Position numbers and translations under genes: made by a program. DNA of 64,000 bases from Cyanophora paradoxa CCMP329 (lineage: Eukaryota; Plantae; Glaucophyta). Below the pieces are notes generated by a model. It worked only from the letters and a program-made list of their open reading frames with translations. It did no database searches and had not been told where the DNA came from. Positions 1,976 to 39,100 of this stretch are shown here, piece by piece; position 1 is the first letter of the stretch, and each line of letters starts with the position of its first letter. The DNA lies in NCBI GenBank assembly GCA_004431415.1, contig QPMI01000181.1, positions 1 to 64,000 of the forward strand. Reading direction: 5' to 3'.

Positions 1976-2018
1976 GGCTTTTACTATATGGATTTATAAA
2001 ATTCCTGATAAGTAAAAG

Positions 2019-4470: not shown

Positions 4471-4499
4471 TTTAATATATAAATATAGATAAAAGAAGA

Positions 4500-5487: not shown

Positions 5488-5540
5488 ATTAAGGATCATT
5501 GGTAGATTTTTTATGTTGCAGTATAATAAAAGAGAATATA

Positions 5541-12327: not shown

Positions 12328-12518
12328 GTTTACTCAAAAGTGGACTCACAGTTGACTCAAATTTATCATAAAAGACCCAAACAGTCTTTTATTTATGGTT
12401 TATTTATCGATTAGGTTGACTAAGTGGGGGAGTTGACTCATTTTTTCACAGATTCTAAAAGAGGACTCTGCCCTAAAAAGAAATAAAAAGTGCCTCAACT
12501 CCACCCACTAAGTCAACC
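12328..12518. repeat. Iteron-like direct and inverted repeats (GTTGACTCA/GTTGACTAA), candidate origin, copy 1
   Basis: GTTTACTCA, GTGGACTCA and GTTGACTCA at 11-12 bp spacing right after the helicase stop. Imperfect inverted repeat 12414-12437 vs 12494-12518 around an AT-rich spacer. Confidence 0.7.
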
Positions 12519-12569: not shown

Positions 12570-12920
12570 ATGGCTGGAACAGATCATGATTCTGGATCGA
12601 TCTATATGATTGAGAGTCAGGAAATGAACAAAGTCTACATAGGAAGAACCTCACAGCCACTTCAAAAAAGATGGAGACAACACAAATCAGGTCAAATGCC
12701 ATCTACAGCAGACCTATGCAAGGCTTCTGATGTGAAGTTCTCAGTCCTGTATTCAAGTAAGAAGGGTGGGCATGAAGACCTAATGAACAGAGAAGCATAT
12801 TACATGTATCTCTTTGAACCTTGGATAGTCAATTTACAAAAACCGAAATCCCGATTTAGGATTAATAGGTTTTTGCGATTCCATTCAGAGGAAGCCAGTG
12901 GATCCATTAAAACATTTTAA
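12570..12920 (+). CDS. GIY-YIG endonuclease
   Basis: GSIYMI...VYIGRT...RWRQH...REAYY...N pattern. Confidence 0.8.
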   Translation: MAGTDHDSGSIYMIESQEMNKVYIGRTSQPLQKRWRQHKSGQMPSTADLCKASDVKFSVLYSSKKGGHEDLMNREAYYMYLFEPWIVNLQKPKSRFRINRFLRFHSEEASGSIKTF

Positions 12921-17841: not shown

Positions 17842-17913
17842 CCGTTTTTGGCTCAGAGAATAGAGCGCTTGATTTCTGACTCCAACCTACGCGGTTCAAA
17901 TCCGCTCGGGAAC
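17842..17913 (+). ncRNA. Degenerate tRNA-like unit with RNA polymerase III A and B boxes
   Basis: TGGCTCAG with a GCTC/GAGC D-stem and GCGG-TTCAAAT-CCGC T-arm at canonical tRNA spacing. Acceptor and anticodon stems do not pair in register. T6 run at 17961. Confidence 0.45.
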
Positions 17914-18547
17914 CTTTACTTCGTTCGCCGTGAAACTTGAAAAGTAAAAACAAAACGCGGTTTTTTCTAGATTAATGCTGTACCCGTCTAGAAAATCAAT
18001 ATTCACGTTTGCTACGATATCTCAACACCAACTTATCAAATCGATGCGCTTAAAACGTCATAAAATCGAGCATTTCAAGGCGGTCACAGCGCTTATGAGC
18101 CATATCGGAATTTCACTAACTGTAACTCCAAATCGCGATGAAACCGATTTTGAATTTTGATTTTAAATTCGATTAAAATCCATTAAACGTGAGTTTTTAA
18201 TATAGATCACTAGGAAGTTATCAAATCGATGCACTGACGGTCGAATATAATCCCATATATCATACATAACAATAACTTGCAATCACATATACGAATCGCA
18301 ATGTGTATAGATCGCTATTACGATTAAAGCGAGTTTTGAAATTCAAAATTAATTCGATTAAATTCGATTATAACTCAAAAATCGCGATTTATAACCATAT
18401 ACTTATCGTTTCGATCAACTTATGATATCGAATATTCAACTATATTATATTGCTTCGATAACCGTGATTACATATGTGGAACCATCAATCTAACACTGCA
18501 TTTAGTAAGCATCTGCCCTAGATTCCCCCCATTACCCTATTATTTAA

Positions 18548-18982
18548 GTGGACTCAAGGTTGACTCATATTAATCGTAAAAGTAGTAAAAGTATATGGAT
18601 TTTGTTACGAATTCAATGCAAGGGTTGACTAAGTGGGTTGAGTTGACTCAAATTTCACAGGAAATATTTGGGACCTAAAGTTTTCTAAAAAGGATTTGAA
18701 AAAATGTGTCAACTCCCCCCACTTAGTCAACCCTGACCATAAACAGTAAGGATTTGAGCTAACATGTATCACAAAGTGAACATTTTGAGTCCACTTAGAA
18801 GATCCACTTTTGAAATCCAAGTTGATTTTGCTTGAAATTTCAAAGTTGATCTAAAAGTGAGTCCACCCTGATTGATTATGGTAACAAAGTTGACTAAGTT
18901 GACTAAGTTGAGTCATCTTAAGAAATTCAAAGAGACTAAGAGTTCAAAATGTTTATGAAAAGTGAGTCAACTTAGACCACTT
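18548..18982. repeat. Iteron-like GTTGACT repeats of element A, copy 2 (subterminal)
   Basis: Same arrangement as 12328-12518. Inverted repeat GGTTGACTAAGTGGGTTGAGTTGAC (18623-18647) vs GTCAACTCCCCCCACTTAGTCAACC (18708-18732), with more copies to 18982. Confidence 0.75.
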
Positions 18983-19029
18983 CTGATAACAAAGTTAAAT
19001 ATTTAATTGATTTAATCGGAAAAGAACAT

Positions 19030-19259
19030 GATTTAATCGAATTTATTGATATAATTCCGATTAGATTCATTTAGGATTCAATTAAGATCAATCGAAGTTA
19101 TTGATATAATTCCGATTAACTACAATTAAGATACAATATCGATTAATCGAGTTTATCGATATAACATCGATTAAATTAATTGAAAATGCATATAAAAATA
19201 CGAAAATTCATGTGAAAATTCAAATAAATTAATCGATTTTATTGATATAACATCGAATC
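19030..19259. repeat. AT-rich subterminal repeats GATATAA-N3-CGATT
   Basis: Four copies (gatataattccgatt x2, gatataacatcgatt, gatataacatcgaat). Confidence 0.6.
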
Positions 19260-19332
19260 ACACATATGAATATTCATATTTTAATCCTGAGGCGGAACGC
19301 CGAGGGATTAAAATATGAATATTCATATGTGT
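19260..19332. repeat. Terminal hairpin of element A (28-bp perfect stem, 17-nt GC-rich loop)
   Basis: ACACATATGAATATTCATATTTTAATCC (19260-19287) is the exact reverse complement of 19305-19332. Confidence 0.92.
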
Positions 19333-20082
19333 TTCTTTAAACTCATGAACAATGCAATTTACGGTAAATGCTTGGAATCTTGCAGGGGTCGCTCAACTGT
19401 CAAGATCGCTAACAGTGAGAAACTCTGTAAGAAATACGCAGCAAGTCCGCTTATCAAAGCGACCAATGTATTAAACGAGAATGCCGTTGCCTTTGAGATG
19501 TATTCGAAGCATGTGAACTTAGATAAACCCGTAGCAATTGGCGCTTTCGTTTTGGATTTTGCGAAACTACATAACTATCGGTTCTTCTATGATGTAGTAA
19601 GGAAGAAGTGGGAAACCGCTAAATTACTGTTCCACGATACCGATTCGTTCTGTCTTTTCCTGAAAACCAATAATCTGAACGAAGATATGAAAGAGATAGG
19701 TGAGTATCTCGATAGGAGCAATTACGATAAATCCCATCCTCTCGTGAGTATCAAAAACCGCATGGTTCCAGGTAAATATAAAAATGAGTTCCCAAATGCA
19801 AAGATCATGGAGTATGTGGGTCTGAGATCGAAACTCTATGCTTTCAGAACTGAGACCAACGAAAGAGTAAAGATGTCGGGGACTTCCTCGAAAGAGGTTC
19901 ATTTTGATGATTTTAAGAGATGTCTGTTCGAAGGCATCATAAAAACAGTATCAGTAACAAACAAGCGAAGGCAAGACCACAACTTATATGACTTGGAGAG
20001 CAGAAGGGTCGCTCTAAACCAACTCGATAGCAAACGGAAGATATCAGCCGACGGCATTCACAGCATTCCATTTGGTCTTTAA
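19333..20082 (+). pseudogene. polB: 3' fragment of element B polB, interrupted by element A
   Basis: FFKLMNNAIYGK...FHDTDS...YVGLRSKLY, collinear with the C-terminus of ORF 12981. Homology starts at the hairpin end. Confidence 0.9.
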
Positions 20083-20267
20083 TATACTTGCTCAATACTT
20101 CTCTTTTTATTTTTTCGATCTCCAAGTAGCAGCAAACCACGGATCAGATGCAGCAACCATATGCACCTTAAACCGGGGTCATTTGGATCGATCGCAAAGT
20201 AGTTTGGTTTCGGGTGTTCTGTCCAAACCGGCTCGTCCATTATTAATATATTGAAAATAAAGTAAAG

Positions 20268-21566
20268 ATGCCCTCAGCACAGATAGGATTGCGACCCATT
20301 CCTAAAATCGTAAAGAAGAGCATGAAAGAAGACCAAGGGAACATGCTACCGATAACCATTCCGGTCGAAGAGAAGAACACACGAATCTTAAAGAAGTCGG
20401 AGATGGTTAAACAACTGATCCCGGAGGCATTGCCTACTGAGACTGTAACGAAAGAATCGAAGATCGCGAAGAAGTTTTACGATCCGCGCACAGGTTACAA
20501 AGGTTTCGGGGCAATGAGAAAGGAACTACCAGAGGAAGACTACAAGAAGATGAGAGAATGGTATGATAAACAGGAAGTCGTTCAGATAAACGCACCGACC
20601 CTTTCAAGAAAGAGAGATCCGATGATTCCGATTCGGCAACCTCTCGATACCTACGTAATCGATCTGCTCTTCTTCCCAGCATACAAGAACCAAAACGACG
20701 GATACGATACGTTCATGTCCGCGATGGAATCTACCTTACGCACGGGTTACATCATTCCGATGAGAGATAAGAGCGCTCTTACGGCGCTTGCGGCGTTTGA
20801 ACAGCTACAACGAAGAGTTCCTCGACCTATCGCACGCGTTCAGAGTGACAGCGGAAGCGAGTTCACAAATAACATGTTCACGAATTACCTTGCTAAGAAG
20901 TTCATAGACCATCAGATAAGCGATGTCGCAGATCATCGAAGCCAAGGTAGAATCGAAGCGTTTAACAAGCAGATCAAACGATTGATCACGAACTATTGCA
21001 TAGCAAACAACACAGCGCGATTCTTCGATGTATTGGGAGACATTGAGTATAACTATAATAATACCATCCACTCAGCAACCAAGAGAAAACCAGCAGAAAC
21101 GACGGAAGATCATTACCGTGAGATTATCGGATTAGAAGATGAGAGGTTCAAGAAGTCGATTGCTTACTTGGATGGTATCAAACAGGGTATGTTTGTGAGA
21201 GTGAGAATAGAAAAGAACCCATTCGCTAAACAAGGTGTCAATTGGTCACGAATCGTCTATACTGTCGAAGGGCGCGAAGGTTTCAAGTTTCGGTTGCGAA
21301 ACCCGAACGGCGAAATGGTCGAAGGGAGGTTTGCTTTTCATGAACTGTTACCTATCAAAGGTGTTGAGTATCACGAAGCGCCCACAGTGGATGCACTCGA
21401 ACAAGCGAAAGAAGAAGCCCGGGTCGATTCGGCGATTCGCAAGGAAGGCATCGGAAAAGCGGATGATGTTCCAGAAGAACCGCTATTACAAGCCAGATTA
21501 AAGAAAAAAAATAAAATTACAAGAGAATTAAAGAAACTTGCAATAAATGGAACTGAAAAACTCTAA
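20268..21566 (+). CDS. rve DDE integrase of element B
   Basis: YVIDL, QSDSGSEF and GRIEAFNK; long stretches identical to ORF 16230. Confidence 0.93.
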   Translation: MPSAQIGLRPIPKIVKKSMKEDQGNMLPITIPVEEKNTRILKKSEMVKQLIPEALPTETVTKESKIAKKFYDPRTGYKGFGAMRKELPEEDYKKMREWYDKQEVVQINAPTLSRKRDPMIPIRQPLDTYVIDLLFFPAYKNQNDGYDTFMSAMESTLRTGYIIPMRDKSALTALAAFEQLQRRVPRPIARVQSDSGSEFTNNMFTNYLAKKFIDHQISDVADHRSQGRIEAFNKQIKRLITNYCIANNTARFFDVLGDIEYNYNNTIHSATKRKPAETTEDHYREIIGLEDERFKKSIAYLDGIKQGMFVRVRIEKNPFAKQGVNWSRIVYTVEGREGFKFRLRNPNGEMVEGRFAFHELLPIKGVEYHEAPTVDALEQAKEEARVDSAIRKEGIGKADDVPEEPLLQARLKKKNKITRELKKLAINGTEKL

Positions 21567-23101
21567 TTTCTGATAAATGCGCCCGTTACATCGACTCTCA
21601 TAGTCGGAGCATTTATATATACCAATGGATAAATACGTATATATCGTGTTCTCAATGGATAACCTATGTAAAATACATCGTTTACCGAAAGTGGGAACCC
21701 CATAGCATATGATACATCCCCAGAGTTATAAGCATTATTTATATTCTCACATACAAACATTCTATTCACACCCTCATACTTGATAAATGACCATGAAACC
21801 CCATCTTGCGAGGTCGCAACATTGAAAGTTTTAATAAACGCAGCCGTTATACCTGAACCATATGCAATTATAGAAGCGATTTCATATGTATATGGGAATG
21901 CTATTTGCAGATACTCTGTTGGCGTTTCCCATACTCCGTTTATTGCGGATGCATTCGCTTCCCATCCAGTTAATGATGGGCGGGCTTTAAATGCCTCCTT
22001 TCCGAATTTCGCAGATGAAGCGGTAAACGCATTATCCGGCAGAAGATACCAATTAGCATCGATGGGGGGTATGTTATTCAGAGTGGATGATATATAGAAC
22101 CTTACAGGGTTCTTAATCTCGTAGTTTGTTACGAGCAAGTCGCAGAGTCTATTAATCATGGTGTCGTTTTCTTCAATATACGTTTCAGTTGCCGCGATCA
22201 TGTCCGGAATCTTAGAGGTATCATCGAGAGAGTTTAAGATATCTTTTGGAAGCGGAACAGAGAGCCTGTAATATCTTGCATATCCTTGGTCATCATTATA
22301 TGGTAAAAACTCTTGCATCTTTTCAAGAGCCGACAGTTCACTTGCAGCCATTAGCATATTGATTAATGGACTTCCTGAGGTGGAAGCAATCCACGAGAGA
22401 ATACCCCAGGTATTCACGTTCTCATAAGGATAACCGACGTTTGATGCGTCCGTTTCATTTACTTCACCGCACGAGATGCTAATAACTATAATATCGTCAT
22501 CGTTATCATATATCTTTTTCGCGTGACTGTAACCACAAACGCTTGGGTTATTGTTACCTGATATTGCGCCATCAATTAGACACATCCCGTCGTAATCGAC
22601 AGGAGCAAAATATGTCGGAGCAGCCGAGGTGGATCGCGCCGCAATCTTACTTGGTATGGTCTTGTAATCGTTATCGTTTGCTATAAAAATGGGTTTCATA
22701 CTCACTGTGTCGAATGTCGTAATAACCACGTCTTTTAGTGAATCTTTTATGAGAGCTTCCCCAGTCACAGAGAGAATGGCTGTCTCTAATGGTGTTACGT
22801 CGTATTTCGTATTAAAAAGGGCATTCTCTATGATGTTTCGCGGATTCGCAAAGATCAAAGGGAGATGGTAAAGGTAAGTATCGTGAAGGTCGGTCGCAGT
22901 TAGTTTAGGTTCATTGGGAAATTCGGGATTTTTCACATTGAGACCGATAGCAATAATACCGCCTGTGGATGTTCCACTTACGAGATCTACAAGATCGATC
23001 ACGCGTTTACCGGTTCTTGTTTCGATCTCTTTTAGCAATCTTGTTATGATGATACCACGAGCGCCACCTCCGGACAAAGATAATACGACTTTTAGGGGCA
23101 T
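21563..23101 (-). CDS. Patatin-like phospholipase fused to discoidin (F5/8 type C) domain
   Basis: GGGARG oxyanion motif, GTSTG nucleophile, SAAPTYF and DGA; C-terminal AFTASS...EYLQI...SQDGVSW...TRYIRIYP...MRVD. Confidence 0.9.
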   Translation of the reverse strand: MPLKVVLSLSGGGARGIIITRLLKEIETRTGKRVIDLVDLVSGTSTGGIIAIGLNVKNPEFPNEPKLTATDLHDTYLYHLPLIFANPRNIIENALFNTKYDVTPLETAILSVTGEALIKDSLKDVVITTFDTVSMKPIFIANDNDYKTIPSKIAARSTSAAPTYFAPVDYDGMCLIDGAISGNNNPSVCGYSHAKKIYDNDDDIIVISISCGEVNETDASNVGYPYENVNTWGILSWIASTSGSPLINMLMAASELSALEKMQEFLPYNDDQGYARYYRLSVPLPKDILNSLDDTSKIPDMIAATETYIEENDTMINRLCDLLVTNYEIKNPVRFYISSTLNNIPPIDANWYLLPDNAFTASSAKFGKEAFKARPSLTGWEANASAINGVWETPTEYLQIAFPYTYEIASIIAYGSGITAAFIKTFNVATSQDGVSWSFIKYEGVNRMFVCENINNAYNSGDVSYAMGFPLSVNDVFYIGYPLRTRYIRIYPLVYINAPTMRVDVTGAFIRN

Positions 23102-23149
23102 CTTTACTTATCTTAAATTTAATAAATCTGTATAAGTAGAGCAAGCAGG

Positions 23150-26100
23150 ATGAGTTTCAATTATCCAGCAAATTTACAGACAGTATCAGGTGGTGGTAAA
23201 GGGAACCCAAAACATGTGAACTTTGATAATATCACCATTAAAGGGTCGGCTTCTATTGATCAGAGCGCGGATAAACCCTCGAAAACTCATCCCCGGGTTC
23301 ATGCTTTATCGGTGAACCAAACGGATCCTGATAAAGAAGATGTTAGCATTGCTTTCAGTTTGGGCAATGTTAAAAAAAACGCTGTTGCAGAGATCAAGGC
23401 AACCAGAAGGAGACCACGGAAACTTAAAACCAGTGGAACGCATCCCGATATTCCCACACGATTCGATAGCGGACGTTTGGTTTTCAACGTCCAGGATGAG
23501 AAGGGAGTTCATCGTAGCGGTTTGAGAATTTATAATGAAGGATCAAATACGATTGCACAAATTCCCCAGATTTTACAGGTAGCCCCACATGGCGAAGAGA
23601 ATCAGATTCGCCACACCAACAGTATTTATCCGAAGGACATCGTCGAAAATGCAGAAACTAATGCACTGTTTGGTTTCACTCTTCCACAGGATACTTCCAA
23701 AGAAAAAGATTCAATCACGGTCGACAGTAGCCCCAGTCAACCAGTAGCCATTCATTTACACCCCGACCTTGTCGAAATGGATAGGCATTTACTACCTTTG
23801 AAAACAAATACCAAAGACCTTGGTATTAGAACCCGACAGTGGCGAAATATTCACGGTAGCAACGTGTATGCAAACGGTGAGAAACTTGTAAGCGAGAAAA
23901 CTATCAGAGAAATATTCGAACATTACGGACCTGTTCCGGTTCCGTTTCCTCTACCATGGGATCCGCCAGATCTTACACCAAAGAAGCAACCAGGAAGAGA
24001 GTATACAGCAGAAGAGAACGTTGCATTTGGGCAACATATCGTGAGTTGGGAAAAAGTTCGAAACAAACCAGTATTTACAGTGTATCAACCACCAACAGAA
24101 GAGCTTCTTGCACCAGATGTGAACGTTATACCTCTTGAAGATCGACGATTCGAAGAAGATAATGAGTTACCTGATGGTTTCGATCCAAACCTTATAACAT
24201 ACGATCGCTACGAACCATATGATGAACAGCTTTTACCTGATGGATTCGCACCCGATCTATTTGATTTCATTGTTGATTGGGAGGACATCCGAAATAAACC
24301 CCAAACATATCCACCTGATCCCCATGCTCACGATTGGGACGAAATAGAGAACAAACCTGATAGATTCCCACCTGTGGATCATAGACACGATTGGGAGGAT
24401 ATCGATGGAATACCAGAAGAATTTCCACCAGAAGACCATAGACACACTTGGGATCAAATCGATGCACCAGAAGAGTTTCCACCAGCACCACATAGACACA
24501 ATTGGAACCAAATCGACCAGCAACCTACATTCGCATCAGCAGGTGATGCTGTCAATGATGGGCTACATGGTGTGAGTCTCTATAAGAATATAGACACAGA
24601 GGAAAGATTAATGTTAGATACGTATTACGTCAATCGTCACGGAATAAATGCAGGCACCACAATGGAAGGCGAATTATATATCAGACCACCTACACGAGTT
24701 AATTTAGTTGCAGCAGGTGGAGGTATTGGAGTAATGCAGAATAAACCGGGCATCTATCTAACAAGTTACTACCCAGATGACATCCCGATGACAGTTACAT
24801 TACCACCTATCCCATCTCTTCCAGCCGATCCAATTAATTTTGTAGACAAAGATGCAGCAATCCAAATTAACGTTACTGATGTAAGCGCTCTTGATGGATC
24901 AAGACCAAAGTTAATATTTAGTCGAGATCGGCTCTTACCTGATGATTTAATTGGAGATCGAGACGATTATAAGCAATGTGAGATAGGGTGGATTAAAACC
25001 AATTATAATGATGTTGATAAGCAAGGGGTCTTGGAAATCAATCAGAGAGCAGCAGCAAAAAACATACACAACGAAACAATATCACGAGTGGTCACAGAGG
25101 ATTATTTAGAAAACAAGAATTACATAGATGGAACCGAATTAGCTACGGCTTTGCTTCCTTTGGCGGCAGTTTCAACTGTCCAATCTTGGTTAGGTAACTA
25201 CCTTCCCTCACAGGTGGAACCATAACAGGTAATCTGACAGTCAATGATACATTGAGTGTAGGTAAAGAGATACACCTAAGTGGAAATCAGTTCGAGAGAG
25301 GATCCCAAGATTTCTCTACATATAATCCAAGGGAAATAGCAGATTGCCTACTTCACTTTAACGCAAACTCTGATAATTGGAAGAGTGGAGCGCTTGTTTA
25401 TGAACTCAAAAATTACGCAAGGGGCGGCTCAGTTTGGAATTATATTAATGTAGTTAACACTCTTGTTAGTTACGGCAGTGTTACTTTCAGCTTCCTCGGT
25501 CCAAATAGTAAAAAGTTCTACCAGGTGGCTACCACAAACACATTTTCATTCATCAATTATCAATATCAAACTTCTACTCTTTATGATACTATTCCTTTCA
25601 GCGGAATTACGGTCTCATTTGTCATTCGATTTAAACCAAGCGTTCCAAATGAAACAGTTTTACGAATCGACGGCTCAACACATGTGAATGGAAACAATCT
25701 CAGTTGGTTGATTACTAAAACAAGCGGGTATTTGAATGTCAATAAGAATGGCTACGATTTAGTGAGCATTCCAATATCAACAACAGAAGGGAATTCTTGG
25801 ACAATGTTCGATATTCGAGTAACAAGCACAACTGTTCATTTTGGTGTAAATGGAAAACATAGAGATACAATATCTGTTCCTGCCGATTCAAGATATCCAC
25901 GCCAAGATGTCAATAAAATACATGTGGGTGATAGCGTTTCAAAATTCGATTTATGCGAACTCCTTTGTTATGGTAGAACCCTTTCAGATACAGAACTACA
26001 AAATATTAGATGGTATTTACAGCAAAAATACGGTTTTCCGGAAGACCCTTTAAATCCATATCCATTGGATAACAACAAGATTCTTGTTAGAACTAATGAG

Positions 26101-29100
26101 TTTAAAGTAACCGGCACCCTCTTGGCGACGAACGTTATTATGACTACATCAACCTCAGGCACAGTATCGACTATGAGCCTTCAAGAAAAAACAAATAGCT
26201 TGGAAGAGAGTATTTATACACAACAAGAGGCAATTACAGCACTCCAAACTGAGGATGCCGCACTTGCAACAAGAATAAATAACATAGAGAGTGATTATAC
26301 TTCTTCTAATGTGGTTCAAGAATGGACAGCACCTTTAACGGCATCGAATGTAGTTCAAGAGTGGATAGCACCATTGACTGCATCGAATGTAGTTCAGGAA
26401 TGGATTGGACCTTTAACAGCATCGAATGTGGTTCAAGAGTGGATTGCGCCATTAACTGCATCGAATGTGGTTCAAGAGTGGATAGCACCTTTAACAGCAT
26501 CAAATGTGGTTCAGGAATGGATATCAGATTACTTACCTCTCACAGGAGGGACACTGTCAAGTAATCTTACCATCTCGGGTAATCTCAAAGTGTCAAGCAA
26601 CATTCAATTAGGAACTCATGGGACGGTTTTAGATGTGACTTATGACACACCCTATTATCCTATCACATCCAACACTGACCCTGCATTTACAATTCCGAAT
26701 TGTCTTATAGCTGCAAAACCATCTGGCTATGCCCATCTACAAAATGGGCATGGAACAACGATCACCAACCGAGCAACATTGGCTGTTCCATTCATTCCAC
26801 AATTTTTTATGACTGGTTCCTCACGGGAATCATACTATAAAATAAATCCATTACTAAATAACCAACTTACTTTGAAAGCATCTGACAACCCCAATTCATC
26901 CATTCATTTGTTTTCAAACAGAAATGATACTGTGGATTGGAGTGAGGGAATAACAATATTTAGTGTGTGTAGTGTGAGGTCACTTACATTGGTCCATGCA
27001 GTGTTTGGCGTGTTTAATTATAATGTGCATGAAGTAAGGTATGGCACACACATAGATTGGTTTGTGAACCCACCTGTTTGCAAATGGGGCATGAATAGAT
27101 ATGTCCATGTTGCTGATGGGGTTAACATGCAATATGGAACACCAACATATAGTAATCTCCCAACTGTCTATATGCCTTATGAGGAATATGCAAATTACAA
27201 ATTTGCATACTGGGACACAACCATTACTTCAAACAGCATATCATATTCAATGAATGGGAAGCATTTAGGAACTGTTGCTGGTAACTGGCTTCCACCATCA
27301 TCATTTAATAATTTAGGACCTGCAAATATTGGGGAGAGTTTGCAGAACTACTTGTTTTCAATAGAGCCTTGACCGAGATTGAGAAGCAACAGGTGAGGTA
27401 TTATATTCAGCAGATGTATGGATTTCCTATAACTCAACCTCTTTACTATCCTGATAATATGCGAATATCAGCAAATTATCTCTATCTAAACAACTTACAC
27501 ATTGGTTCAAATGCTATCATTCCAAACTATACCACATCAAATGTGGTTCAAGGTTGGATACAGAACCACACACCTGCGTGGTCAAATATCACAGATAAAC
27601 CATTAACTTTTGCTCATGATGCTCATTCTCACACAAAGTCAGAGATAACAGATTTCGCCCATTCTCACACAAAGTCAGAGATTACAGATTTTGCACACAC
27701 CCATTTATGGGCAGATCTCACAGACAAACCGCTCACGTTTACTCCTTCTGCGCACACTCACACAAAATCACAAATAACAGATTTTGCCCATTCTCATACG
27801 AAGTCAGAGATTACAGATTTTGCACACACCCATTTATGGGCAGATCTCACAGACAAACCGCTCACGTTTACTCCTTCTGCGCACACTCACACAAAGTCTC
27901 AAATTACAGATTTCGCCCATTCTCATACAAAGTCAGAGATAACAGACTTTGCCCACACTCATTTATGGAATGACATCACAGACAAACCATCAACGTTTGC
28001 CCCTTCTGCGCACACTCATGATTACTTGCCTCTCACAGGAGGAACAATTTCCTCAAATCTTACGATTTCATCCAACTTGAATGTTATAGGAAAAATTCAA
28101 ATTGGAGACAAAAATACAAACATTGATGTATACTATGACGCACCCTATTATCCTGTTACTTCTAATACAGACCCCGCTTTTGCCATACCAGATTGCCTCT
28201 TAACAATAAGATTAGATGTTGTCCCTGTCGGCATAAACATCAGTCACGCCTTTATTGCAAATAGAGCAACTACGGCAATTCCCTTTATTTCCGGGTAACC
28301 TTCCCATGGTCAGGATACAACACAATAACTCAATTGAGATCTGATTACAATAACCGAAACATTGCCCAACAACCTACTTATTCATATACAAGCCGGGAAT
28401 TTGGAATGCCGTATCCCGTAACTGTGGATTGGTCAAAAGGTATCACCATCTTCTTTGCAGGTTCTTATAGATTTTGGGGACCGTGGGTAGATCTCTTAAA
28501 TTTTAGTTCACCAGATGGAACTAATAAAGTATCCTTTGGGACAACAGGTAGCAGTATGGGTATACATTCTTATACAAGCAATGGTGTGACTTACCCAGCA
28601 GCACACTTAAATTATCCCACATCGTATTCTGAGTTGTCGCCGAATCATTGGGACTTTACAGTTTCTTCAAATGTCTGCACTTTCGGATTTAACGGACAAG
28701 ATTTAGGCACAGTCATTACAGAAGTGGATTATCTTCCACCTTCCACTTTTAGTAGGATGGGTGTTGCCTATTTCATTACGGCAGTAGGGGAATATATTAT
28801 ATTCAACAGAGCATTGACATTTGATGAAAGGCAAAAAGTGAGATATTATATGCAAGATTATTTTGGCTTTCCAAAAAAGCAAACAATCGTTATTCCTGAT
28901 AATCTACGCATTTCTGCTGAAAATGTTCATATTAGAAATTTAATCGTTTCTTCAAATGCAAGCATTCCAAACTATACCACATCAAATGTGGTTCAAGGTT
29001 GGATACAGAACCACACACCTGCGTGGTCAAATATCACAGACAAACCGTTAACGTTTGCTCCTGATGTTCATACTCACACAAAAGACCAAATATCAGACTT

Positions 29101-30879
29101 TTCCCATTCTCATTTATGGAATGACATCACAGACAAACCGTTAACCTTTGCTCCTGCTGCCCATTCTCATTTATGGAACGACATCACCGATAAACCATTA
29201 ACCTTTGCTCCTGATGCTCATTCTCATGCATGGACAACCATTACAGGTAAACCATTAACCTTTGCTCCTGATGCTCACACTCACACAAAGTCTCAAATAA
29301 CAGACTTCGCCCACAATCATTTATGGGCGGACATCACAGACAAACCGTTAGCGTTCACTCCTACTACTCACACTCACACAAAGTCTCAAATTACTGATTT
29401 TGCCCACACTCATTTATGGGCGGACATCACAGACAAACCGTTAACATTTGCTCCTGCTGCTCACTCTCATTTATGGGCGGACATCACAGACAAACCATTA
29501 ACATTTGCACCTGCTGCTCATACTCATGATTGGATAGGTATTACAAATAAACCTTTGCTGTTTCCGCCCGATGCTCATACACACCCTTGGAGTAGTATAA
29601 CAGAAAAACCATTAACATTTCCGGCAACAGCTCACACTCATTTATGGAATGATATTACAGACAAACCAACATTTGCAACTGTTGCGACAACCGGAAATTA
29701 TGATGATTTAATTAACAAGCCAACATACACAGCGCCCACAAATTTTGACGCTACAAGTATTATTTCCACAGATCGCACAGGTGATTGGAGAAATTACAAC
29801 GGAGGAATATTGACAGGGGACACAAATACTTGGGCGAACACATGGGCTGCTTCTGATGAAGATTGTAGTAGCTGTAAAATGTATTGGAATGTCCAACAGG
29901 AATGAAATCTTGTTATATCTATTATGCTTGTCATTACAATTGTAGATACTTTGATGTGGTGGGAATTTATCCTCCAACAACTGTGTATACATATTTACGA
30001 GTAAATGCCTATTCTACTGCAATCGACCCATCAAAGGAATTCAAACAGTATGTTGGAATAAATTGTGAAGGACTAACCAAAGTTGGTGTTCATGGACAGA
30101 AAGGAAGAATTTATTTACCCGGTCCAATTGCTGTTGGATGGAGCAAAAACCCTGCTGTAACTTCACACAGTGGTTACTGTCATTGGGATAATATCTTCGG
30201 AAAACCAACAGCTTCAACATCTGTCGGTCCTCACTCACACAGCAAAGCAGATATCACAGATTTTGCACATACTCACACAAAGGCAAATATTACAGATTTT
30301 GCCCATACTCACACTAAATCAGAAATCTCAGATTTGCCTTCTTTTGATCCATTCACAGCCAATACGATCACAGCAAATAATACTATGTATGTAGGATCGG
30401 GTTCAATAGTAACTCCTGCATCACCCACAAACCAAGAAACATGGTTCTTCCACAATTCCGCAAACTTTTATGATAAAACACTGCTCTGTCGTGGAAATGC
30501 TTATGCAAGAGCATTTTATGCGATGAATGCAGGAACCACAAACACAATCAGCCAAGTTCCATCTTGGTATGATATAGAAAGACGTTTCAAATCAGGAAAA
30601 TATCAAGCCACAAGTGGTGTTATAAGCGCGGGTCAAACAACACAGCATGCATATGTTTTATATTGGGACCCACCTTTTTACACTCAGACACCTGTTGTAA
30701 ATGCCACACTTCAAGGAACTCCTGCAACAAACCCAGGGGATGTAGATTTTAGAATTGGAATCTCAAACTCCACAGCTAACTACACAACAATCTATGTGAC
30801 ATTCATAGCATCCCCTACTCTATCTGAAAGTCGAAGTATCACATGCACTATCCATTGGACATGTCATGGTATACCATAA
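23150..30879 (+). CDS. Giant fibre/spike-like protein (about 2,570 aa if joined; split into ORFs 23150-25225, 25252-27372, 27369-28298, 28334-29905, 29884-30879)
   Basis: Tail-fibre-like HxHxWxDITDKP and HxHxKSxITDF repeats, YLPLTGGT motifs, and three LamG/ConA-like modules. Adjacent ORFs join by single frameshifts near 25206, 27335, 28293 and 29886. Confidence 0.7.
26300..26525 (+). repeat. 39-nt coding tandem repeat (APLTASNVVQEWI, about 6 copies)
   Basis: Visible in both DNA and translation. Confidence 0.85.
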
Positions 30880-30928
30880 TTAACTCACAGATCGCTTTAT
30901 TTTTCTAATCTTCTTAGTAAAAGAAGCA

Positions 30929-31774
30929 ATGGGTGAATACAACCGAGTCCAATTACCGGTTTACGCATTGGGTGCGCCCGCAATTCATTTCAGACAACAT
31001 GAAGTATCCGATGAGATTCGTGGTATGGAATCAACAGAACGCGCAAACTCAGGAAATGCGTTCGATAAAAACAGTGTGATTCGCGTAAAAGAACTACGAG
31101 CCGATAAGAATTCGGGTGTGGTAAAAACAACTCAATTATTGGTTACAAATGCGAATTTTCAATCAGCAAACGGAGAACCCGATGCGTATGGTGTAGATAT
31201 CAAAGCATTCCAATTCGACAATACGCGAGCCGCCGCCGTTATCCGATCAGGAGGCGCTGTTATTGGTGGTGGATGCCGAGTATCCGGAATGCTTGGCTCT
31301 TCTGCTGCGTTTAACGATATTCCGGACACCTTACCTGAACATGCAGATAATCCCCAACGAATGCGTATGTTTCTTCCATGTGGAGATTCCCCATATGCTT
31401 TTGCTATCATACGAGCAAATGTAAATATAAATGATGCTACCCAACCCCAAGGTATTGACGGACCTTGGAAAATGGCTGATCAACTTTTACCGAAAGCGAT
31501 TTACTCCATGTGTCGCTCTCAGAATGGAGGTGTAGAAGGATATACATTCATTGTTCAAGCGGTAGGTCATGGAGGGCGTGGATGGGTTATAAGAAATCCT
31601 GCAACACAACCCAACACTTTTGATTTTTGGGCATCTGAGGTTGGAGGTTATGATATTATGATTTATGGATATCGTAATGATGAGGCGGCATGGGCTGTTG
31701 CTAACTGCATAAATCCCGATGCTCAACTATCGAATTTCTATAATGAACCATACCCCGAAGATCCCGTCCCATAA
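30929..31774 (+). CDS. Hypothetical virion-associated protein, paralogue 1
   Basis: Intact 281-aa ORF; shares ELRxDxNSGVVKTTxLLVTNANF with the next gene. Confidence 0.7.
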   Translation: MGEYNRVQLPVYALGAPAIHFRQHEVSDEIRGMESTERANSGNAFDKNSVIRVKELRADKNSGVVKTTQLLVTNANFQSANGEPDAYGVDIKAFQFDNTRAAAVIRSGGAVIGGGCRVSGMLGSSAAFNDIPDTLPEHADNPQRMRMFLPCGDSPYAFAIIRANVNINDATQPQGIDGPWKMADQLLPKAIYSMCRSQNGGVEGYTFIVQAVGHGGRGWVIRNPATQPNTFDFWASEVGGYDIMIYGYRNDEAAWAVANCINPDAQLSNFYNEPYPEDPVP

Positions 31775-31793
31775 TTATGTTTCGATATATTAA

Positions 31794-32698
31794 ATGGCTG
31801 CACCTGCACCACCTGAACGCATCTTAACTGCGCAACTATCGTTAGCTGCGCCCGCAAACCACGTATTACAGCATGCTATTATCGATAATATCGATGGTCT
31901 CGAATCCACAGAAATCGCACCAACTCTCAATACCTTCGGTGATACTCATATGCTGAGACTGAGAGAGTTGCGATGTGACACCAACAGTGGAGTGGTGAAA
32001 ACAACGAGACTTCTTGTAACAAATGCGAACTTCAACGCTCATTATGGAGATCCCGACAGTTACAATGATGATAATAAGGTTACCAACTTTGCTTACGAAG
32101 CAAGAAGGGCGCAATTAAATGTAGATCCGGAGGCGCTTATATTGGGGACGGACTAAGAGTTGGTGGTATCATTGGAGCGCCTCTAATCGTAAATGACCAA
32201 CCCAATCCTGATGATGAAAACACGAGAATTAGAACGTATTGCCCGGGTATGAATGAACCTTACATTATTAAAATAAACACGATTATAATAAACCTGCAAA
32301 CTGCCGTAATTGACATAATAGAACCGCTGGGAAACCATTACAGATATACCGAAAAGCTACCTGCGGATATTTATGCATTATGTAGGAGAACCGATGTAGC
32401 AAGACCACGTATTACAGTTCAAGTAGTCCCCGTCGATAATTTTGGTCTTGCTTTCCATTCATTGCCTCTTTTGGATACGCAAGATGATGAATATATAATT
32501 AGGGCAACACAACAAGGAACATTCACGGTTATTATGTATGCCGAAAGAAACGATGCAATCGCAAGAGGAAACCGCTATGGTCAATATCTAACCACAAATC
32601 TCTATAATCCATCGGCGGTAGCGATCCGCTACCATAAATCTACGGTATATATAGAGGAATGGATGAAAAAACAAGGAGATTTATTGAGTCTGCGATAA
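31794..32698 (+). CDS. Hypothetical virion-associated protein, paralogue 2 (frameshift near 32120)
   Basis: The shifted frame reads RSGGAYIGDGLRVGG, matching RSGGAVIGGGCRVSG of paralogue 1, which joins ORFs 31794 and 32249. Confidence 0.65.
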
Positions 32699-32931
32699 TG
32701 GTTCATGGACTTGATAAGTTTGATTACACCGAAACTGTCTATAAAAAGGCGCAAGAGAAGGTATCTGTGAGATGCCTGCAATGTAATAAAGTCTTTCAGA
32801 CTTATGGATTTAACCATATAAAGGGGTCAGGATGTAGACAGTGTTCTAAGAAACACTCTCATGCATACAGAAAAAAGACTACATGGGGAATCGTAATAGA
32901 AGAGAAACCGATTATGTTATATTTTGATTAG
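32659..32931 (+). CDS. Small zinc-ribbon protein (DUF723-like repeat seen in viral endonuclease-associated proteins)
   Basis: FIESAIMVHG..KFDYTETVY...CLQC...HIKGSGCRQC. Confidence 0.6.
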   Translation: MDEKTRRFIESAIMVHGLDKFDYTETVYKKAQEKVSVRCLQCNKVFQTYGFNHIKGSGCRQCSKKHSHAYRKKTTWGIVIEEKPIMLYFD

Positions 32932-33117
32932 AGTTTCGAAAGAGAAATGAGCATCTTTCCGCATTTACCTTTGGTTATTATGCAAGTATCAAAGCAATTC
33001 GGACATGTCTTATGATAATGGAGCATTATGATATCGACCAACTCATACGGAAATACTTTCGCTAAGATGGTTCGCATCCTACCAATTTCGTTTTTTATTT
33101 TTCTATATAATTCATAA

Positions 33118-33516
33118 ATGAATCATCGCGGTTCCCATGTAATGTTAGATTACAAGTTCAATCATCCATTGATGGTGGGATTGGAAAACTTGGAGACCAC
33201 AACAACGTGGTTAATGCAATTTTTACAATCTATTATACAAGAGCAAGGTATCCGAGTTGTTCACAAGCATTGCGAGATTTTCGATGGTGGTGTTTCGCCA
33301 CCGGGTTTTGCGATGGTATTACTTCTTGATGAGAGCCATTGCACCGCTCATTGTTACTCTGACCAAGGAATGTTAGCGATTGATGTATTCACTTGCGGAA
33401 CCGAAGCGCAAAGTAAGACCTCCGTAATATCTAAATTGATAGATGAGAGAATAACAGAGATCTTTTCAGGGTTGGAGAAAGCGGAGAAGCAGATAGCAGC
33501 GCGATTTCCGAGTTAA
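33118..33516 (+). CDS. speH: S-adenosylmethionine decarboxylase proenzyme (prokaryotic/viral pyruvoyl class)
   Basis: GSHVMLD start, LLDESHCTAHCY with the E-S autocleavage site, and AIDVFTCG; 132 aa. Confidence 0.85.
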   Translation: MNHRGSHVMLDYKFNHPLMVGLENLETTTTWLMQFLQSIIQEQGIRVVHKHCEIFDGGVSPPGFAMVLLLDESHCTAHCYSDQGMLAIDVFTCGTEAQSKTSVISKLIDERITEIFSGLEKAEKQIAARFPS

Positions 33517-33564
33517 TCACACTGAGATTTTGAAGAAATATAACATGTCTTATTGAATATCGTC

Positions 33565-33842
33565 AGGTGTAACAGGTGTAACAGGTAAATCCCAAACTTC
33601 GCTCCTAGGGAGGCCAAAAACCCAAAACTTTGGGATTTACCTGTTACACCTGTTACACCTTGGGATTCACCTGTTACATCTATCAAACAAAGCATTAATA
33701 TATTCGATTCCTTACATTGATTATAGTGTCATGTAACAGGTGTAACAGGTGTTTCCCAAACTTTCCTCATAGGAGATGAAAAATCCAAAACTTTGGGATT
33801 TACCTGTTACACCCGTTACACCTTGGGATTCACCTGTTACAC
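33565..33842. repeat. Iteron-like GGTGTAACA repeats of element B: perfect 32-bp inverted repeat plus a second diverged copy
   Basis: 33565-33596 is the exact reverse complement of 33629-33660; the unit recurs at 33732-33842. Confidence 0.85.
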
Positions 33843-33848
33843 ATTGAT

Positions 33849-34633
33849 TATCGACTGTTTAATTGGACATGTTACACTTGAAACACAATTTTGATACAGT
33901 AAAAAACAGAATCCAATCTTATCAATTGTTTAATTGGACATAATGCAACTCTGGGGTCATTTTTGATACAGTAAAAATCTCAACCGAATCTCATCGATTG
34001 TTTAATTGGACATAATGCAGTAACCATCTCTTCCAACAAAATACGCCGCAATCTCATCAATTGTTTAATTGGACATAATGCAGTAACCATCTCTTCCAAC
34101 AAAATACGCCGCAATCTCATCGATTGTTTAATTGGACATAATGCAGTAACCATCTCTTCCAACAAAATACGCCGCAATCTCATCGATTGTTTAATTGGAC
34201 ATAAGGCAGTAACCATCTAATCCAACAAAATACGCCGCAATCTCAACGATTGTTTAATTGGACATAATGCAGTAAGGAGTGAATTATTTTCATCCGATAT
34301 TTCATCGATTGTTTAATTGGACATAATGCAGTAACGAGTGAATTATTTTCATCCGATATCTCATCGATTGTTTAATTGGACATAATGCAGTAACAAGTGA
34401 ATTATTTTCAACCGATATATCATCGATTGTTTAATTGGACATAATGCAGTAACCATCTCTTCCAACAAAATACGCTGCAATCTCATCGATTGTTCAATTG
34501 GACATAATGCAGTAACGAGTGAATTATTTTCAACCGATATATCATCGATTGTTTAATTGGACATAATGCAGTAACGAGTGAATTATTTTCAACCGATATT
34601 TCATCGATTGTTCAATTGGACATAATGCAACTC
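33849..34633. repeat. Subterminal tandem array: about 13 copies of a 33-nt core with two recurring linker types (63- and 59-nt units)
   Basis: Core TCATCGATTGTTTAATTGGACATAATGCAGTAA at 33991, 34054, 34117, 34180, 34243, 34302, 34361, 34420, 34483, 34542 and 34601, plus two degenerate upstream copies. Confidence 0.9.
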
Positions 34634-34679
34634 TGTGTGAATTTTTGCGATTTCCGATAGAATGGGCGGTGGACTACTT

Positions 34680-34825
34680 CAATCGTGATTATATCAATCG
34701 TGATTATATCATAAATTTATGTTCCTTCAATCGAGATTATATCAAATTTGCATAAAATACATATTAATCGCGTTTATATCAATAAATTAATCGATATTAT
34801 ATCAATTGTTTAATCGAGATTATTA
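34680..34825. repeat. AT-rich subterminal repeats AATCG-N3-TTATATC
   Basis: aatcgtgattatatc x2, aatcgagattatatc, aatcgcgtttatatc and aatcgatattatatc. Confidence 0.65.
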
Positions 34826-34926
34826 AAATTTAATATAAAAATACATATTTATCGATTAATTTATACATATTTATTAACATGAAAATACATATTTATCGAT
34901 TAATTATACAAATTTATTTAAGAAAA

Positions 34927-35011
34927 ACACATAAAGAAATACAAATTTAAATCCAGGAGCGAAGCGCGAAGCGCGTAGCGGAGGGATTTAAATTTGTATT
35001 TCTTTATGTGT
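34927..35011. repeat. Terminal hairpin of element B (28-bp perfect stem; loop with three GCGNAGC units)
   Basis: ACACATAAAGAAATACAAATTTAAATCC (34927-34954) is the exact reverse complement of 34984-35011. Confidence 0.92.
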
Positions 35012-36030: not shown

Positions 36031-36153
36031 GTGTGGTGGGGGTTCAGTGCAAGAGTTCTAAGTGCGTTCGATCCGCTGTCGACGTCGACATGGTTCAACT
36101 CACTTCACACGTACACGCCCCCTGGCCCAGGCCCCCCCGAGCCCCCCCCGCCC

Positions 36154-39100
36154 CTACTCCTGGGAGAGGACCTGGGTGATGGCGCGGACGACGGGCGAGG
36201 CGGCGACGTCGGTGCGCGGCTCGGCGAGCTTGCGCTCCAGCAGCTCGTCCACCAACGCCCGCAGCTCCCGCGCCAGCACCGCCACCCGCGCCGGCGCGTG
36301 GAACTCGATCTGCAGCGCGACGGGCTCAGCAACCGGTACGAGATGGATTTTAGGAGGTTTAAGATTTTAGTTCAGGGGCCTATCGTTTCCAGATTACGAG
36401 ACGCGGGTGGGTGGGAGTGGGGCCGCTCGCGTCGCACCCAGCCGTCGACGGCGACGACGGCGCGCTGGTGGTCGACGGAGATGGGGCCCCCGAAGAGCAG
36501 CAGCGCGAACGGCGACACCTGCACCGGCGAGATGTCAGGAGGGAGGAGGAGGCGGCCGCGGCGGTGCAGGTGGCGGGGCCATGCAGCGGTGCCGGCCGCG
36601 GGAGCTCTTTTTTTTGGGGGTGGGGGGGGGTGGGGGGTGGGCGGGGGGGGACCATGGAGGAATCGCGGATGAAGACCTTGTTCGTCTTGACCTGCGCGCC
36701 TGCATCAGCGAACGAAGAGGGGGCACGAGGGGGAGGGGGGGGGTTAGGGTCGCGCGCCTTCTCGAGGAAGACGAGCCAGCGGGACTCGAAGTCGGTCGAG
36801 GCGAAGTTGACCGAGCCCGGGTGCAGGTGCACCCGCCCTGCCGGCGCGCGGGGAGCGGCGGCGTCAGGCTCGAGCCGGGCCGCAAGGAGCCGGGGGCGGC
36901 GGGCGGGCGGGTCGAGGGCGGCGGGCGGGCGGGCGGGGCGGACCGTCGTGCTTGGTGGAGTGGGTGATCTCCCGCGCCTTGTGGTCCTTCGCCATGCTGC
37001 CCCCGCCGTCTCCGCGTACTGCGGGGGGGGGGGGGGGGGGGGGGGGGGGCAGGGGTTAGACGGCGGGGAGCGAATGGGCGGGGCGGATAATTGCGGTCTC
37101 TTCAGTCCACGCACAGGGCGGACCCCTCGCAGGATTCTAGCAAGCAAATGCACGGGGCGGATGGAGGGAGGGAGGGGGCGGGCCGGGGAGGGGCGGGGGG
37201 CGGGGGGCGGGGGGGAGGGGGGAGCGGACCTTTGTCTCGGGGAGCTCGACGGAGACGACGTTGGGGTAGAGCCCCGCCGCCAGCACCGCCCGCACCTGCG
37301 CGGCCCGGCGGTGGTCGGACCCGGGGCGGGGGGAGGGGGGGGGGGGGGCGGCGGGCGGGGGGGCGAGAAGGGGGGGGGGGGGGCGGGGCCCCGGGCCGTC
37401 TCTAGGGCCTCTTGGGAAATGTCGTGAAAGCTTAGGTCATCTTTTTCTCTAGATCACGTCAGATCTCTAGGCCGCGTTTGAATTCTCGCAACGAGGCCGT
37501 CGCTTGGGCCATTTTCAACAAAGGGTTTCTTGGCGGCGGGCGAGCGCGGGGCCGGGCCCGCACCAGCTTCACGTTCTTCGCCTGCGCGTTCGCCCGCGCG
37601 CCCTTGGCCTCTGCGCGCCCGGCCCCGCCCCGTGAGCCGGTCATCGGCGGTGTAAAGAAGCCTGGAAAGCCCGGGGCGCCCAGCGAGTCTAGGGCGCCCA
37701 GGCTTCTTCTCGAGCGAGACAGAGAGGCGCCGGTTCGGGAAGCCTGGAAAGCCCACGGCGCCCGGGCGCGCGAAGGAGTGGCTTCGGGGGCGCACCGAAG
37801 CCGATGTCGCGGAGGAGGTCGGCGAACTGGTGCCGCAGGTCGCTCATCGTCCGAAGCGTCTGCCGCGACAGGAAGTGCTGCGCCGCCGGCCGCGCGAGAG
37901 GCGAGACGAGTCAGGCCGAGCGCGTCGACCGGGAAGCACGCGGAATGGTTCGAGGCGTTCTAGCGCGCAAGCTAGGCTAGGTAGGCCATGCGGTTGGCGC
38001 CGGCCCGGCCCCAGCCAACTCCGAGTCCGCCCTCGTCTAGCTAATGGCTAATGCTAATGTGCCTATATATGCTAATGGCTTGTGGCTATATATGCCAAGC
38101 AAGTAACGCGAGCGACCTCGTTGCAGTAGGCGTCGTCGCGGCCCTGGGAGCGGGCGTCGAGCCAGCCGTTGTAGGCCCGCAGCGTCGTCAGGTGGTCCGA
38201 GCGCCCCACCGCCATCCCACGCTTCGCCTTGTTCGCCTGAGGGCGACGGGGAGGGCGGGCGGGATGAGATGAGGGGCAAGCGGTGAGATAAGAGCTTTGG
38301 TAAGAGCGAGCTAGGAAGCCTAAGATGTTTCTAGGAAGCTAGGAAGCTTGAATCGAAGCGGAAGGCAGCTGGACTCCTGCAGCTGCAGCTCGCAGCCGGG
38401 GCTCTCGATCCATCGGGCGCGGGCGCGGGGGGCACCTCGTCGCGCTTCTCGAGGGGGGCGACGAAGGGGGAGCGGGAGGAGAGCCCCGCCGCGATCGTCA
38501 GGATCGGGTCCACGCACCTGCCGGGGCCGGGGCGACGGCGTCAGATAGGGAAGGAGCACAGCGGAGGAAAGCGCAGGGGGCGGGCGGGCGGACTGGAAGA
38601 CGGCTTAGCTAATAATTAAGACTCTGAACTTAGTTTATAGTTACGATTATGAACTCTTCGAGCAGGTAAAGCAGCGAGCAAATCAAAGCAAAGCGGGCGG
38701 ACTGGAACACGGAGGCGAGGAGGAAGGACGGGAGGAGTAAAGGATCTATCTATCTAAATATCTGCTATGATGAAAGGATCTATCTATCTATCCATCCGAA
38801 CTCTATTATTATGAACTCTTAGAGCGGATAAGCAAGCGGAGGGGGCGGTTTGGAAGATCTCCCTCTATGGTAAAGCGGGCGGACTCTATCTTGTTCGTAA
38901 AGGACCTCCCTATAAAGGGGGCGGGCGGGCGGAGGGGCGGGCGGACTGGAGGACGGAGGCGAGGAGGAAGGACGGGAGGAGTAAAGGATCTATCTATCTA
39001 TCTATCTCTTTATCCAGCCTCCGGTCTGGAAAGTCTCTTTATCCATCTCTTTATCTTAAGCAAAGCAAAGCAAAGCAAAGGGGGCGGACTGGAAGACGGA

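Follow-up and report, generated by a model that had tools for sequence, protein, structure and literature searches.

Perfect fold-back hairpins at the right ends of two nested Polinton-like elements of Cyanophora paradoxa: a possible self-priming replication system

The DNA analyzed here (the window) is a stretch of 64,000 nucleotides from the glaucophyte Cyanophora paradoxa CCMP329 (contig QPMI01000181.1, positions 1 to 64,000), in which positions 1-35011 are AT-rich (GC ~0.31-0.45 per kb) and the sequence beyond ~36 kb is GC-rich (~0.7). Two related elements of the Polinton-like virus (PLV) kind lie in this AT-rich part. Element 1 starts beyond the left window edge and has its right tip at 19332. 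Its capsid and ATPase genes are frameshifted, and it further encodes an AEP-PriCT2-SF3 helicase, a GIY-YIG endonuclease, a pPolB polymerase (polB), and an RVE integrase. After 19332 follow the 3′ part of the element 2 polB, an integrase, a patatin-discoidin fusion, fibre-like genes, an S-adenosylmethionine decarboxylase, and a stretch without genes that closes the element at 35011. Since the element 2 polB part starts directly after 19332, element 1 is an insertion within that gene, with the junction exactly at 19332/19333. The two hairpins of the preliminary description are real; the interval given there, 19260-35011, is not one unit and joins the right tip of element 1 to the right part of element 2. 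These hairpins, HP1 and HP2, are the true right ends of the elements, base-exact and multi-copy, and their possible role in priming DNA synthesis is the subject of this report.

19260-19332, plus strand: HP1, right-terminal hairpin of element 1, 73 nt (arm 19260-19287, 17-nt loop, arm 19305-19332), perfect 28-bp stem
19291-19301, plus strand: HP1 loop cap GGCG-GAA-CGCC, a GNA triloop on a 4-bp stem, read from the sequence
34927-35011, plus strand: HP2, right-terminal hairpin of element 2, 85 nt (arm 34927-34954, 29-nt loop, arm 34984-35011), perfect 28-bp stem
34959-34979, plus strand: three tandem GCGNAGC mini-hairpins (GCGAAGC GCGAAGC GCGTAGC) capping the HP2 stem
18535-19332, plus strand: apparent terminal inverted repeat (TIR) of element 1, ~800 bp, placed by a depth step and loose contig ends
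19333-20082, plus strand: 3′ part of the element 2 polB, the gene into which element 1 is inserted, 65% amino acid identity to the element 1 polB

The stretch is present in 20 of the 22 sequencing runs listed, four of which (X1, X4, X12, and X17) were examined, all as contigs. In two of the four, contigs with an intact polB begin to match the window precisely at 19333 and differ from it upstream of that position (among the 24 loose ends listed of 102). Read depth across 35011 falls from 6632 to 71 (X1, with a flat level of 66), 2102 to 17 (X4), 3876 to 30 (X17), and 10024 to 95 (X12), staying flat afterwards in all four runs, and in three of them contigs leave HP2 at 35011/35012 into other GC-rich flanks (among the 24 rows listed of 27). 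The commonest HP2 loop contig has 27-31 times the depth of the host flank and 1.2-1.9 times that of an element 2 gene contig (three runs); because depth is no copy number, as the tool itself warns, this is stated only as tens of HP2-type ends, perhaps two per element. At the inner side of HP1, a depth step at ~18512-18612 and loose ends before 18535/18541, both in all four runs, suggest that element 1 has a TIR of ~800 bp, of which the window holds the right copy only. Neither a left junction nor a target site duplication (5-6 bp in Polintons) was identified among the loose ends listed. Separately, a single-copy 3.2-kb contig contains only a 35-nt piece of HP2 (34946-34980), which makes it a truncated end at another genomic site.

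The 3′ end of HP1 is flush with the insertion point and that of HP2 with host DNA, neither stem can be extended outward, and in the folded end the last base is paired, forming a primer-template junction. Stem search, folding, and shuffles all bear out the perfect 28-bp stems described earlier: the DNA folding z-scores are -13.3 for HP1 and -12.0 for HP2, and none of 200 shuffles folds as well. Also as first described, the stems share their length and a frame (ACACATA...AATCC, GAG ahead of the right arm, a TGTGT 3′ end) despite different internal sequence. This frame pattern matches twice in the window, whereas 100 shuffles give a mean of 0.00 matches. A third arm variant, from a loose end in X4, is again 28 nt long with the same frame, which together with the multi-copy contigs places the hairpin in other copies. 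Between HP1 and HP2, 7 of the 28 arm positions differ, each with a matching difference in the partner arm. Independent compensatory change is not supported by these matched differences, since using one arm as the template for its partner would produce the same pattern. The sub-terminal regions of the two elements are dissimilar in self-blastn (E 1e-6), and synonymous sites are saturated: dN is 0.29 against a dS of ~3 in the polB overlap (19333-20082), and the integrases, 74% identical, have synonymous divergence beyond correction. The shared frame is therefore conserved rather than recent. Each HP1 arm also contains a perfect 16-bp palindrome (e.g., 19264-19279). The Rfam matches of HP1 are miRNA models far below the gathering score and were set aside as generic hairpin matches.

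The loops of both elements are GNA loops, and in each case they lie on the strand that finishes with its 3′ end at that terminus. In positions 1-35011 the plus strand holds GCGNAGC four times, of which three lie in the HP2 loop. Exonuclease-resistant mini-hairpins are formed solely by GNA loops, with any N, according to the available part of PMC13037366; ViennaRNA has no model for them and folds the HP2 loop otherwise. A variant contig found in all four runs alters the N of two GCGNAGC heptamers, at 34962 and 34969 (chance 3/210), along with a change at 34955 outside the heptamers and arm changes at 34940 and 34948 (among the 10 differences listed of 14). Because the loops are GNA mini-hairpins and the variant alters the free N of two of them, the 3′-terminal strand has likely been selected to fold as single-stranded DNA. 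These same observations bear on the idea that the hairpins are functionless by-products of integration or break repair, in which the tip is duplicated by folding back, an alternative named in the available text of bioRxiv 10.64898/2026.07.28.741278. Template copying alone would give perfect arms, but it accounts poorly for a 28-bp length fixed in three arm variants, for GNA caps in two elements despite saturated synonymous sites (dS ~3 or more), for loop changes at free positions, and for a depth ~27-31 times that of single-copy DNA. A by-product is strongly disfavoured and would be most improbable.

Further repeats lie inside the hairpins and around the replication genes:

19049-19258, minus strand: five AATCGnnnTTATAT repeats just inside HP1, by motif scan
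34681-34802, plus strand: five AATCGnnnTTATAT repeats just inside HP2, by motif scan, in the opposite orientation to those of element 1
12415-12517, no strand assigned: inverted GTTGACTAAGT pair after the element 1 helicase gene, candidate internal origin
18624-18731, no strand assigned: second inverted GTTGACTAAGT pair, candidate internal origin
33565-34640, no strand assigned: sub-terminal non-coding region of element 2, with an inverted GTGTAACAG iteron cluster (33565-33842) and a 59-63-bp tandem array

AATCGnnnTTATAT has 16 matches in the window with at most one mismatch, against 0.98 expected, and GTTGACTAAGT has 7 matches against 0.39 expected. The two inverted GTTGACTAAGT pairs bracket the GIY-YIG/polB/RVE block, in agreement with other PLVs, whose repeats bracket a second replicase module (bioRxiv 10.64898/2026.10.13.758929). 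In element 2, an additional perfect 32-bp internal stem at 33565-33660, made of the iteron-like GTGTAACAG repeats, is a further candidate internal origin. The non-coding part of element 1 also has A-box-like and B-box-like motifs 44 nt apart at 17842-17915, a tRNA-like spacing. ARAGORN and Rfam make no call there and the stability is not unusual. A polymerase III RNA is possible.

The replication module of element 1 consists of three genes:

9733-12327, plus strand: AEP primase-PriCT-2-SF3 helicase, 864 amino acids, from Pfam PriCT_2 (E 1e-9) and DUF5906 (E 2e-21), with AEP and Walker motifs
12570-12920, plus strand: GIY-YIG endonuclease, Pfam E 9.9e-11
12981-16226, plus strand: polB, 1081 amino acids, with a TP-like domain with a shortened loop, vOTU, an EndoVII-like insert (504-537), lost exonuclease motifs, and retained polymerase motifs A, B, and C

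The polB matches Pfam DNA_pol_B_2 (E 2e-13), its best matches are Maverick-type polymerases (32-39% over the polymerase part), and its AlphaFold model (pLDDT 87.7) has phi29 polymerase as its top nine Foldseek matches. It contains TPR1 and TPR2, as a Polinton/Maverick-type pPolB does, and its catalytic C-terminal part is under purifying selection, as the dN and dS above indicate. The parts that bear on priming are abnormal. The motif [GS]S[GN][WFY] of the terminal protein (TP) domain, found in 103 of 120 homologues, reads DSY. The priming-loop span is 19 residues, compared with 23-24 in 117 of the 118 homologues covering the loop, and it has no Gly or Pro, one of which is present in 117 of those 118 and, in the available text of Krupovic et al., near every linking residue. 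TPR1 keeps 21 of 36 conserved columns, where the homologue minimum is 25. The exonuclease region lacks ~95 residues and with them the signature of proofreading: ExoI, ExoII, and KGxYPY, present in 108, 118, and 110 of the 120 homologues, are absent. Protein priming by this polB is thus doubtful as read from its sequence.

The abnormal loop fits a mechanism in which the hairpin on a single-stranded 3′ end would prime DNA synthesis in place of TP. This proposal, our preferred reading, which we rate as possible and only a little short of even, builds on the observed terminal position, conservation, and gene content, and its priming, resolution, and integrase geometry would run as follows. A helicase, or lagging-strand run-off from the internal iteron origins, would expose the last 73-85 nt, and the exposed strand would snap back, protected by its nuclease-resistant mini-hairpins. 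The polB would then extend the base-paired 3′-OH into the genome. An orientation-keeping resolution, e.g., nicking where the old hairpin meets the newly made DNA, would regenerate the ...TGTGT 3′-OH, which the integrase would join to host DNA. In favor of self-priming may be counted the AEP primase-SF3 helicase encoded beside an exonuclease-less polB in element 1, the triple GCGNAGC that recurs in an anellovirus and in a small Rep-encoding genome, and the palindromes of Halocafeteria elements, which in the available text of bioRxiv 10.64898/2026.07.28.741278 prefer non-pPolB replicases, i.e., elements without TP.

Several observations weigh against self-priming. An ACACA/TGTGT dinucleotide repeat such as that at the tips suits slide-back protein priming. 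The TP fold of polB is kept, with Ser185 in the alpha2-beta4 loop of the AlphaFold model, given in the available literature as the place of linking residues, and Tyr186 adjacent. The vOTU domain, whose proposed job is freeing DNA-bound TP, keeps 29 of 34 conserved columns including Cys231 and His337. Palm C keeps only 28 of 51 conserved columns (homologue minimum 40); since it and TPR1 both diverge beyond any homologue, the polB is fast-evolving overall and its loop change need not be specific, and the TP region was read in one copy. No flop loop occurs in the three informative read-derived pieces (32 of 115 pieces listed) or the two window ends, though contigs drop rare forms, and no strand-change joint is listed at either hairpin in the contigs of the four runs. 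Finally, Streptomyces 3′ overhangs fold into G:A-closed hairpins and yet are patched from a TP primer (PMC4513846 and PMC5449611, available parts).

That last case suggests a Streptomyces-like telomere, in which a primase-helicase would copy the genome from internal origins, a protein-bound 3′ hairpin would protect the end, polB would patch it from TP (Ser185 or Tyr186), and fold-back extension would only repair nibbled ends, keeping the arms identical. Such a telomere would retain the TP fold, the loop Ser, and vOTU, would have a dinucleotide-repeat tip, and would be expected to present a single loop orientation; G:A-closed hairpins, TP priming, and fold-back repair have precedent together in the parts of PMC4513846 and PMC5449611 available. 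It sits badly with a priming loop four residues shorter than in nearly all homologues and devoid of Gly and Pro, with a TPR1 below the homologue minimum, and with Halocafeteria palindromes, which in the available preprint text accompany non-pPolB replicases. On balance it is credible but rather unlikely.

Loop orientation also constrains how a self-primed end could be resolved. Hairpin transfer or cruciform resolution leaves the loop inverted in about half of the ends. The three pieces and both window ends have a single orientation, a weak result expected about once in 16 by chance. If it holds, resolution would have to keep orientation and would not proceed by parvovirus-type hairpin transfer or cruciform cutting. 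The suggestion that EndoVII or GIY-YIG resolves the hairpin or cruciform is not supported, as cruciform resolution predicts flip and flop loops and the informative pieces show one orientation only. The EndoVII motif also occurs in 108 of the 120 Maverick-type polB homologues, which speaks against it as a dedicated resolvase and rules out the insert as a hairpin adaptation.

A variant of self-priming, the "inside-out" reading, would take the free genome as a linear duplex with snap-back hairpin ends, in which the 28-bp stem is the terminal duplex. A pPolB without protein priming would extend the fold-back 3′-OH, RVE would join the 3′-OH 28 bp from the tip to the host, and repair would unfold the hairpin into a palindrome of single orientation. 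We consider it unlikely; if true, it would mean that a switch from protein to hairpin priming has been caught within one polymerase lineage, together with a new integration geometry.

Searches elsewhere address whether such hairpins recur. A scan for the hairpin frame gave no stretch in viral_contigs and three in metagenome_contigs, all rejected: two lack the stem, and the third (L003) is a 27/28 palindrome without similarity to the window or, by eye, a viral open reading frame (ORF). Scans for related loci with the integrase, capsid homologue, or helicase each alone found nothing, and one with the integrase alignment found two distant loci. The first of these breaks off at the integrase stop codon, the second is a fragment, and a terminal hairpin is absent from both. 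Among 31 IMG/VR polB loci no comparable terminal hairpin was seen, a weak baseline because most contig ends are not element ends. The triple GCGNAGC occurs in 74 IMG/VR stretches, one of which (L082) has a perfect stem of at least 15 bp and none of which was recognised as a PLV end; ORFs were examined for L044, L060, and L082. In the first it lies in an anellovirus (L044:3001-3021) and in the second in a 2.2-kb Rep/capsid genome whose motifs were read by eye (L060:705-725). The same context appears in four more contigs of 3.6-3.8 kb and one more of 2.2 kb.

L082, an unrelated phage-like contig, has a near-identical cap (CC-TGAA-three GCGNAGC-GGAA-GG) at 2979-3043, on an internal 19-bp AT-rich stem beside 22-bp iterons. 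A similar cap at an internal site raises the question of whether the hairpin is a recognition signal and not a primer, i.e., a place where the AEP primase would load onto the displaced strand, comparable to the single-strand origins of G4 and RSF1010, or an integrase or packaging signal. Mini-hairpins do occur at phage primase sites, where they exclude single-strand-binding protein, and RepB′ binds near one (PMC13037366, available part), and element 1 encodes an AEP primase. However, a recognition signal leaves unexplained that in each element the stem reaches precisely to the final base and gives no account of how the extreme 5′ end is rebuilt, and a primase for element 2 was not seen, lying outside the window. 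That the hairpin is such a signal and not a primer is quite unlikely.

The remaining genes place the elements among integrase-encoding PLVs, as first described:

16230-17615, plus strand: element 1 RVE integrase (D126, D188, E224), Pfam rve E 2.6e-4, below cut-off
20268-21566, plus strand: element 2 RVE integrase, 74% identical to that of element 1
5327-6955, plus strand: element 1 major capsid gene, frameshifted, fragments 40-59% identical to P0124
6970-7751, plus strand: element 1 packaging ATPase, frameshifted, Pox_A32 E 2.9e-4, below cut-off
21563-23101, minus strand: element 2 patatin phospholipase-F5/8 discoidin fusion, by Pfam
23150-30879, plus strand: putative fibre genes of element 2, whose units resemble phage tail repeats, from weak PTR matches below cut-off and internal repeats
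33118-33516, plus strand: element 2 S-adenosylmethionine decarboxylase, Pfam E 3.2e-12

The DDE triad of the integrases is invariant in the integrase alignment, and rve is stronger in the homologues P0122 and P0123. P0124, the closest capsid homologue (60% over the fragment) and itself labelled Cyanophora paradoxa, groups with the Capsid_N/Capsid_NCLDV clusters (score 0.98), through which a double jelly-roll capsid can be assigned while the window copy is frameshifted; its single-sequence fold model has a pLDDT of 34, and neither it nor polB finds a match in the PDB by sequence search. Two divergent short ORF starts at 4306-4769 resemble penton proteins by eye, without a Pfam match. The available part of PMC12220804 describes patatin-discoidin fusions in PLVs and discoidin in Rhizaria and glaucophytes, and mentions a tail-repeat protein for glaucophyte PLVs; with the label of P0124, this makes an algal host likely. 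The patatin and 691-aa genes at 21573-25103 recur in inverted orientation, with ~71% identity, at window positions 1-3554. The genes shared by elements 1 and 2 are arranged in different order, and in element 1 the patatin/691-aa copies and the capsid module are frameshifted and the replication module is intact. In the GC-rich part, the C-terminus of a spliced DEAH-helicase-like gene (36100-37400, minus strand) and ankyrin-like repeats (61500-63250) are putative host genes, judged by eye. A tRNA-Thr called by ARAGORN at 43449-43529, inside GC-rich repeats, is probably spurious.

Hairpin priming as a concept is not new here. For Halocafeteria seosinensis, the available text of bioRxiv 10.64898/2026.07.28.741278 describes palindromes next to target site duplications in five subtypes (PLV 4 and virophage 1, 2, 5, and 6), mainly with non-pPolB replicases and 52 nt long in subtype 5, and already proposes hairpin priming. 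The Cyanophora elements resemble these subtypes in the palindrome at the TIR tip by the insertion boundary, the RVE integrase, and the primase-helicase replicase (AEP-SF3 in element 1; no non-pPolB replicase was seen for element 2). They differ from them, as far as that text goes, in that a pPolB under purifying selection with a degenerate priming loop coexists with the hairpins. The same text is silent on GNA caps, on a fixed length of the stem, and on how the loop is oriented. New here are thus the GNA caps, the fixed stem length, and the pPolB with a degenerate primer loop. A search for terminal palindromes of PLVs and virophages found only that preprint, within a coverage that most subscription papers lie beyond. 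"Palindrom" and "hairpin" have no matches in the EMALE paper (PMC8547959) or in the glaucophyte PLV paper (PMC12220804), bioRxiv 10.64898/2026.10.13.758929 mentions palindromic repeats once, in a figure legend, and PMC11296320, PMC12747079, and PMC13236599, in their available parts, mention hairpins for giant viruses or poxviruses only.

Other systems share single features. The mavirus module likewise has a pPolB with TP and vOTU but a remnant exonuclease, an SF3 helicase, and an RVE integrase (bioRxiv 10.1101/2024.03.18.585575, available part), whereas here the capsid is PLV/NCLDV-like by its features and helicase and AEP primase form a single fusion protein. Parvovirus rolling-hairpin ends also have a 3′-terminal fold-back, a base-paired 3′-OH, and small internal ears. 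In contrast to parvoviruses, these elements have the gene set of a double-stranded DNA virus with an integrase, no flip or flop was seen in contigs, and no HUH Rep/NS1 nickase was found among the 23 window ORFs scanned in Pfam, parts of both elements lying outside the window. Some parvovirus left ends are flip-only (PMC1185569, available part). With archetypal Streptomyces telomeres (PMC4513846 and PMC5449611, available parts) the elements share GNA-closed hairpins on the 3′ strand, there closed by sheared G:A pairs, a terminal palindrome that folds back, and a replicon-encoded TP. Streptomyces, however, has several short palindromes over a long overhang, separate Tap and Tpg, and proven TP priming, whereas here there is one 28-bp stem and TP priming is doubtful. 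Bombyx mori bidensovirus is a contrasting case, with a pPolB and inverted terminal repeats as here but, in the available text of PMC4938981, explicitly without terminal palindromes or self-priming.

The question addressed by this locus is how linear PLV and virophage genomes copy their ends, notably after TP has been lost or replaced by a primase-helicase. The locus offers a family of many copies whose ends are known to the base, a 3′ hairpin of defined chemistry (GNA mini-hairpins), and a polymerase encoded by a single ORF, on which priming from the hairpin can be compared with protein priming from Ser185. It gives independent support, from a second host lineage, to the palindromes described in Halocafeteria and extends them to pPolB-encoding elements. 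If self-priming is true, the Cyanophora elements would capture a lineage in the course of exchanging protein priming for hairpin priming.

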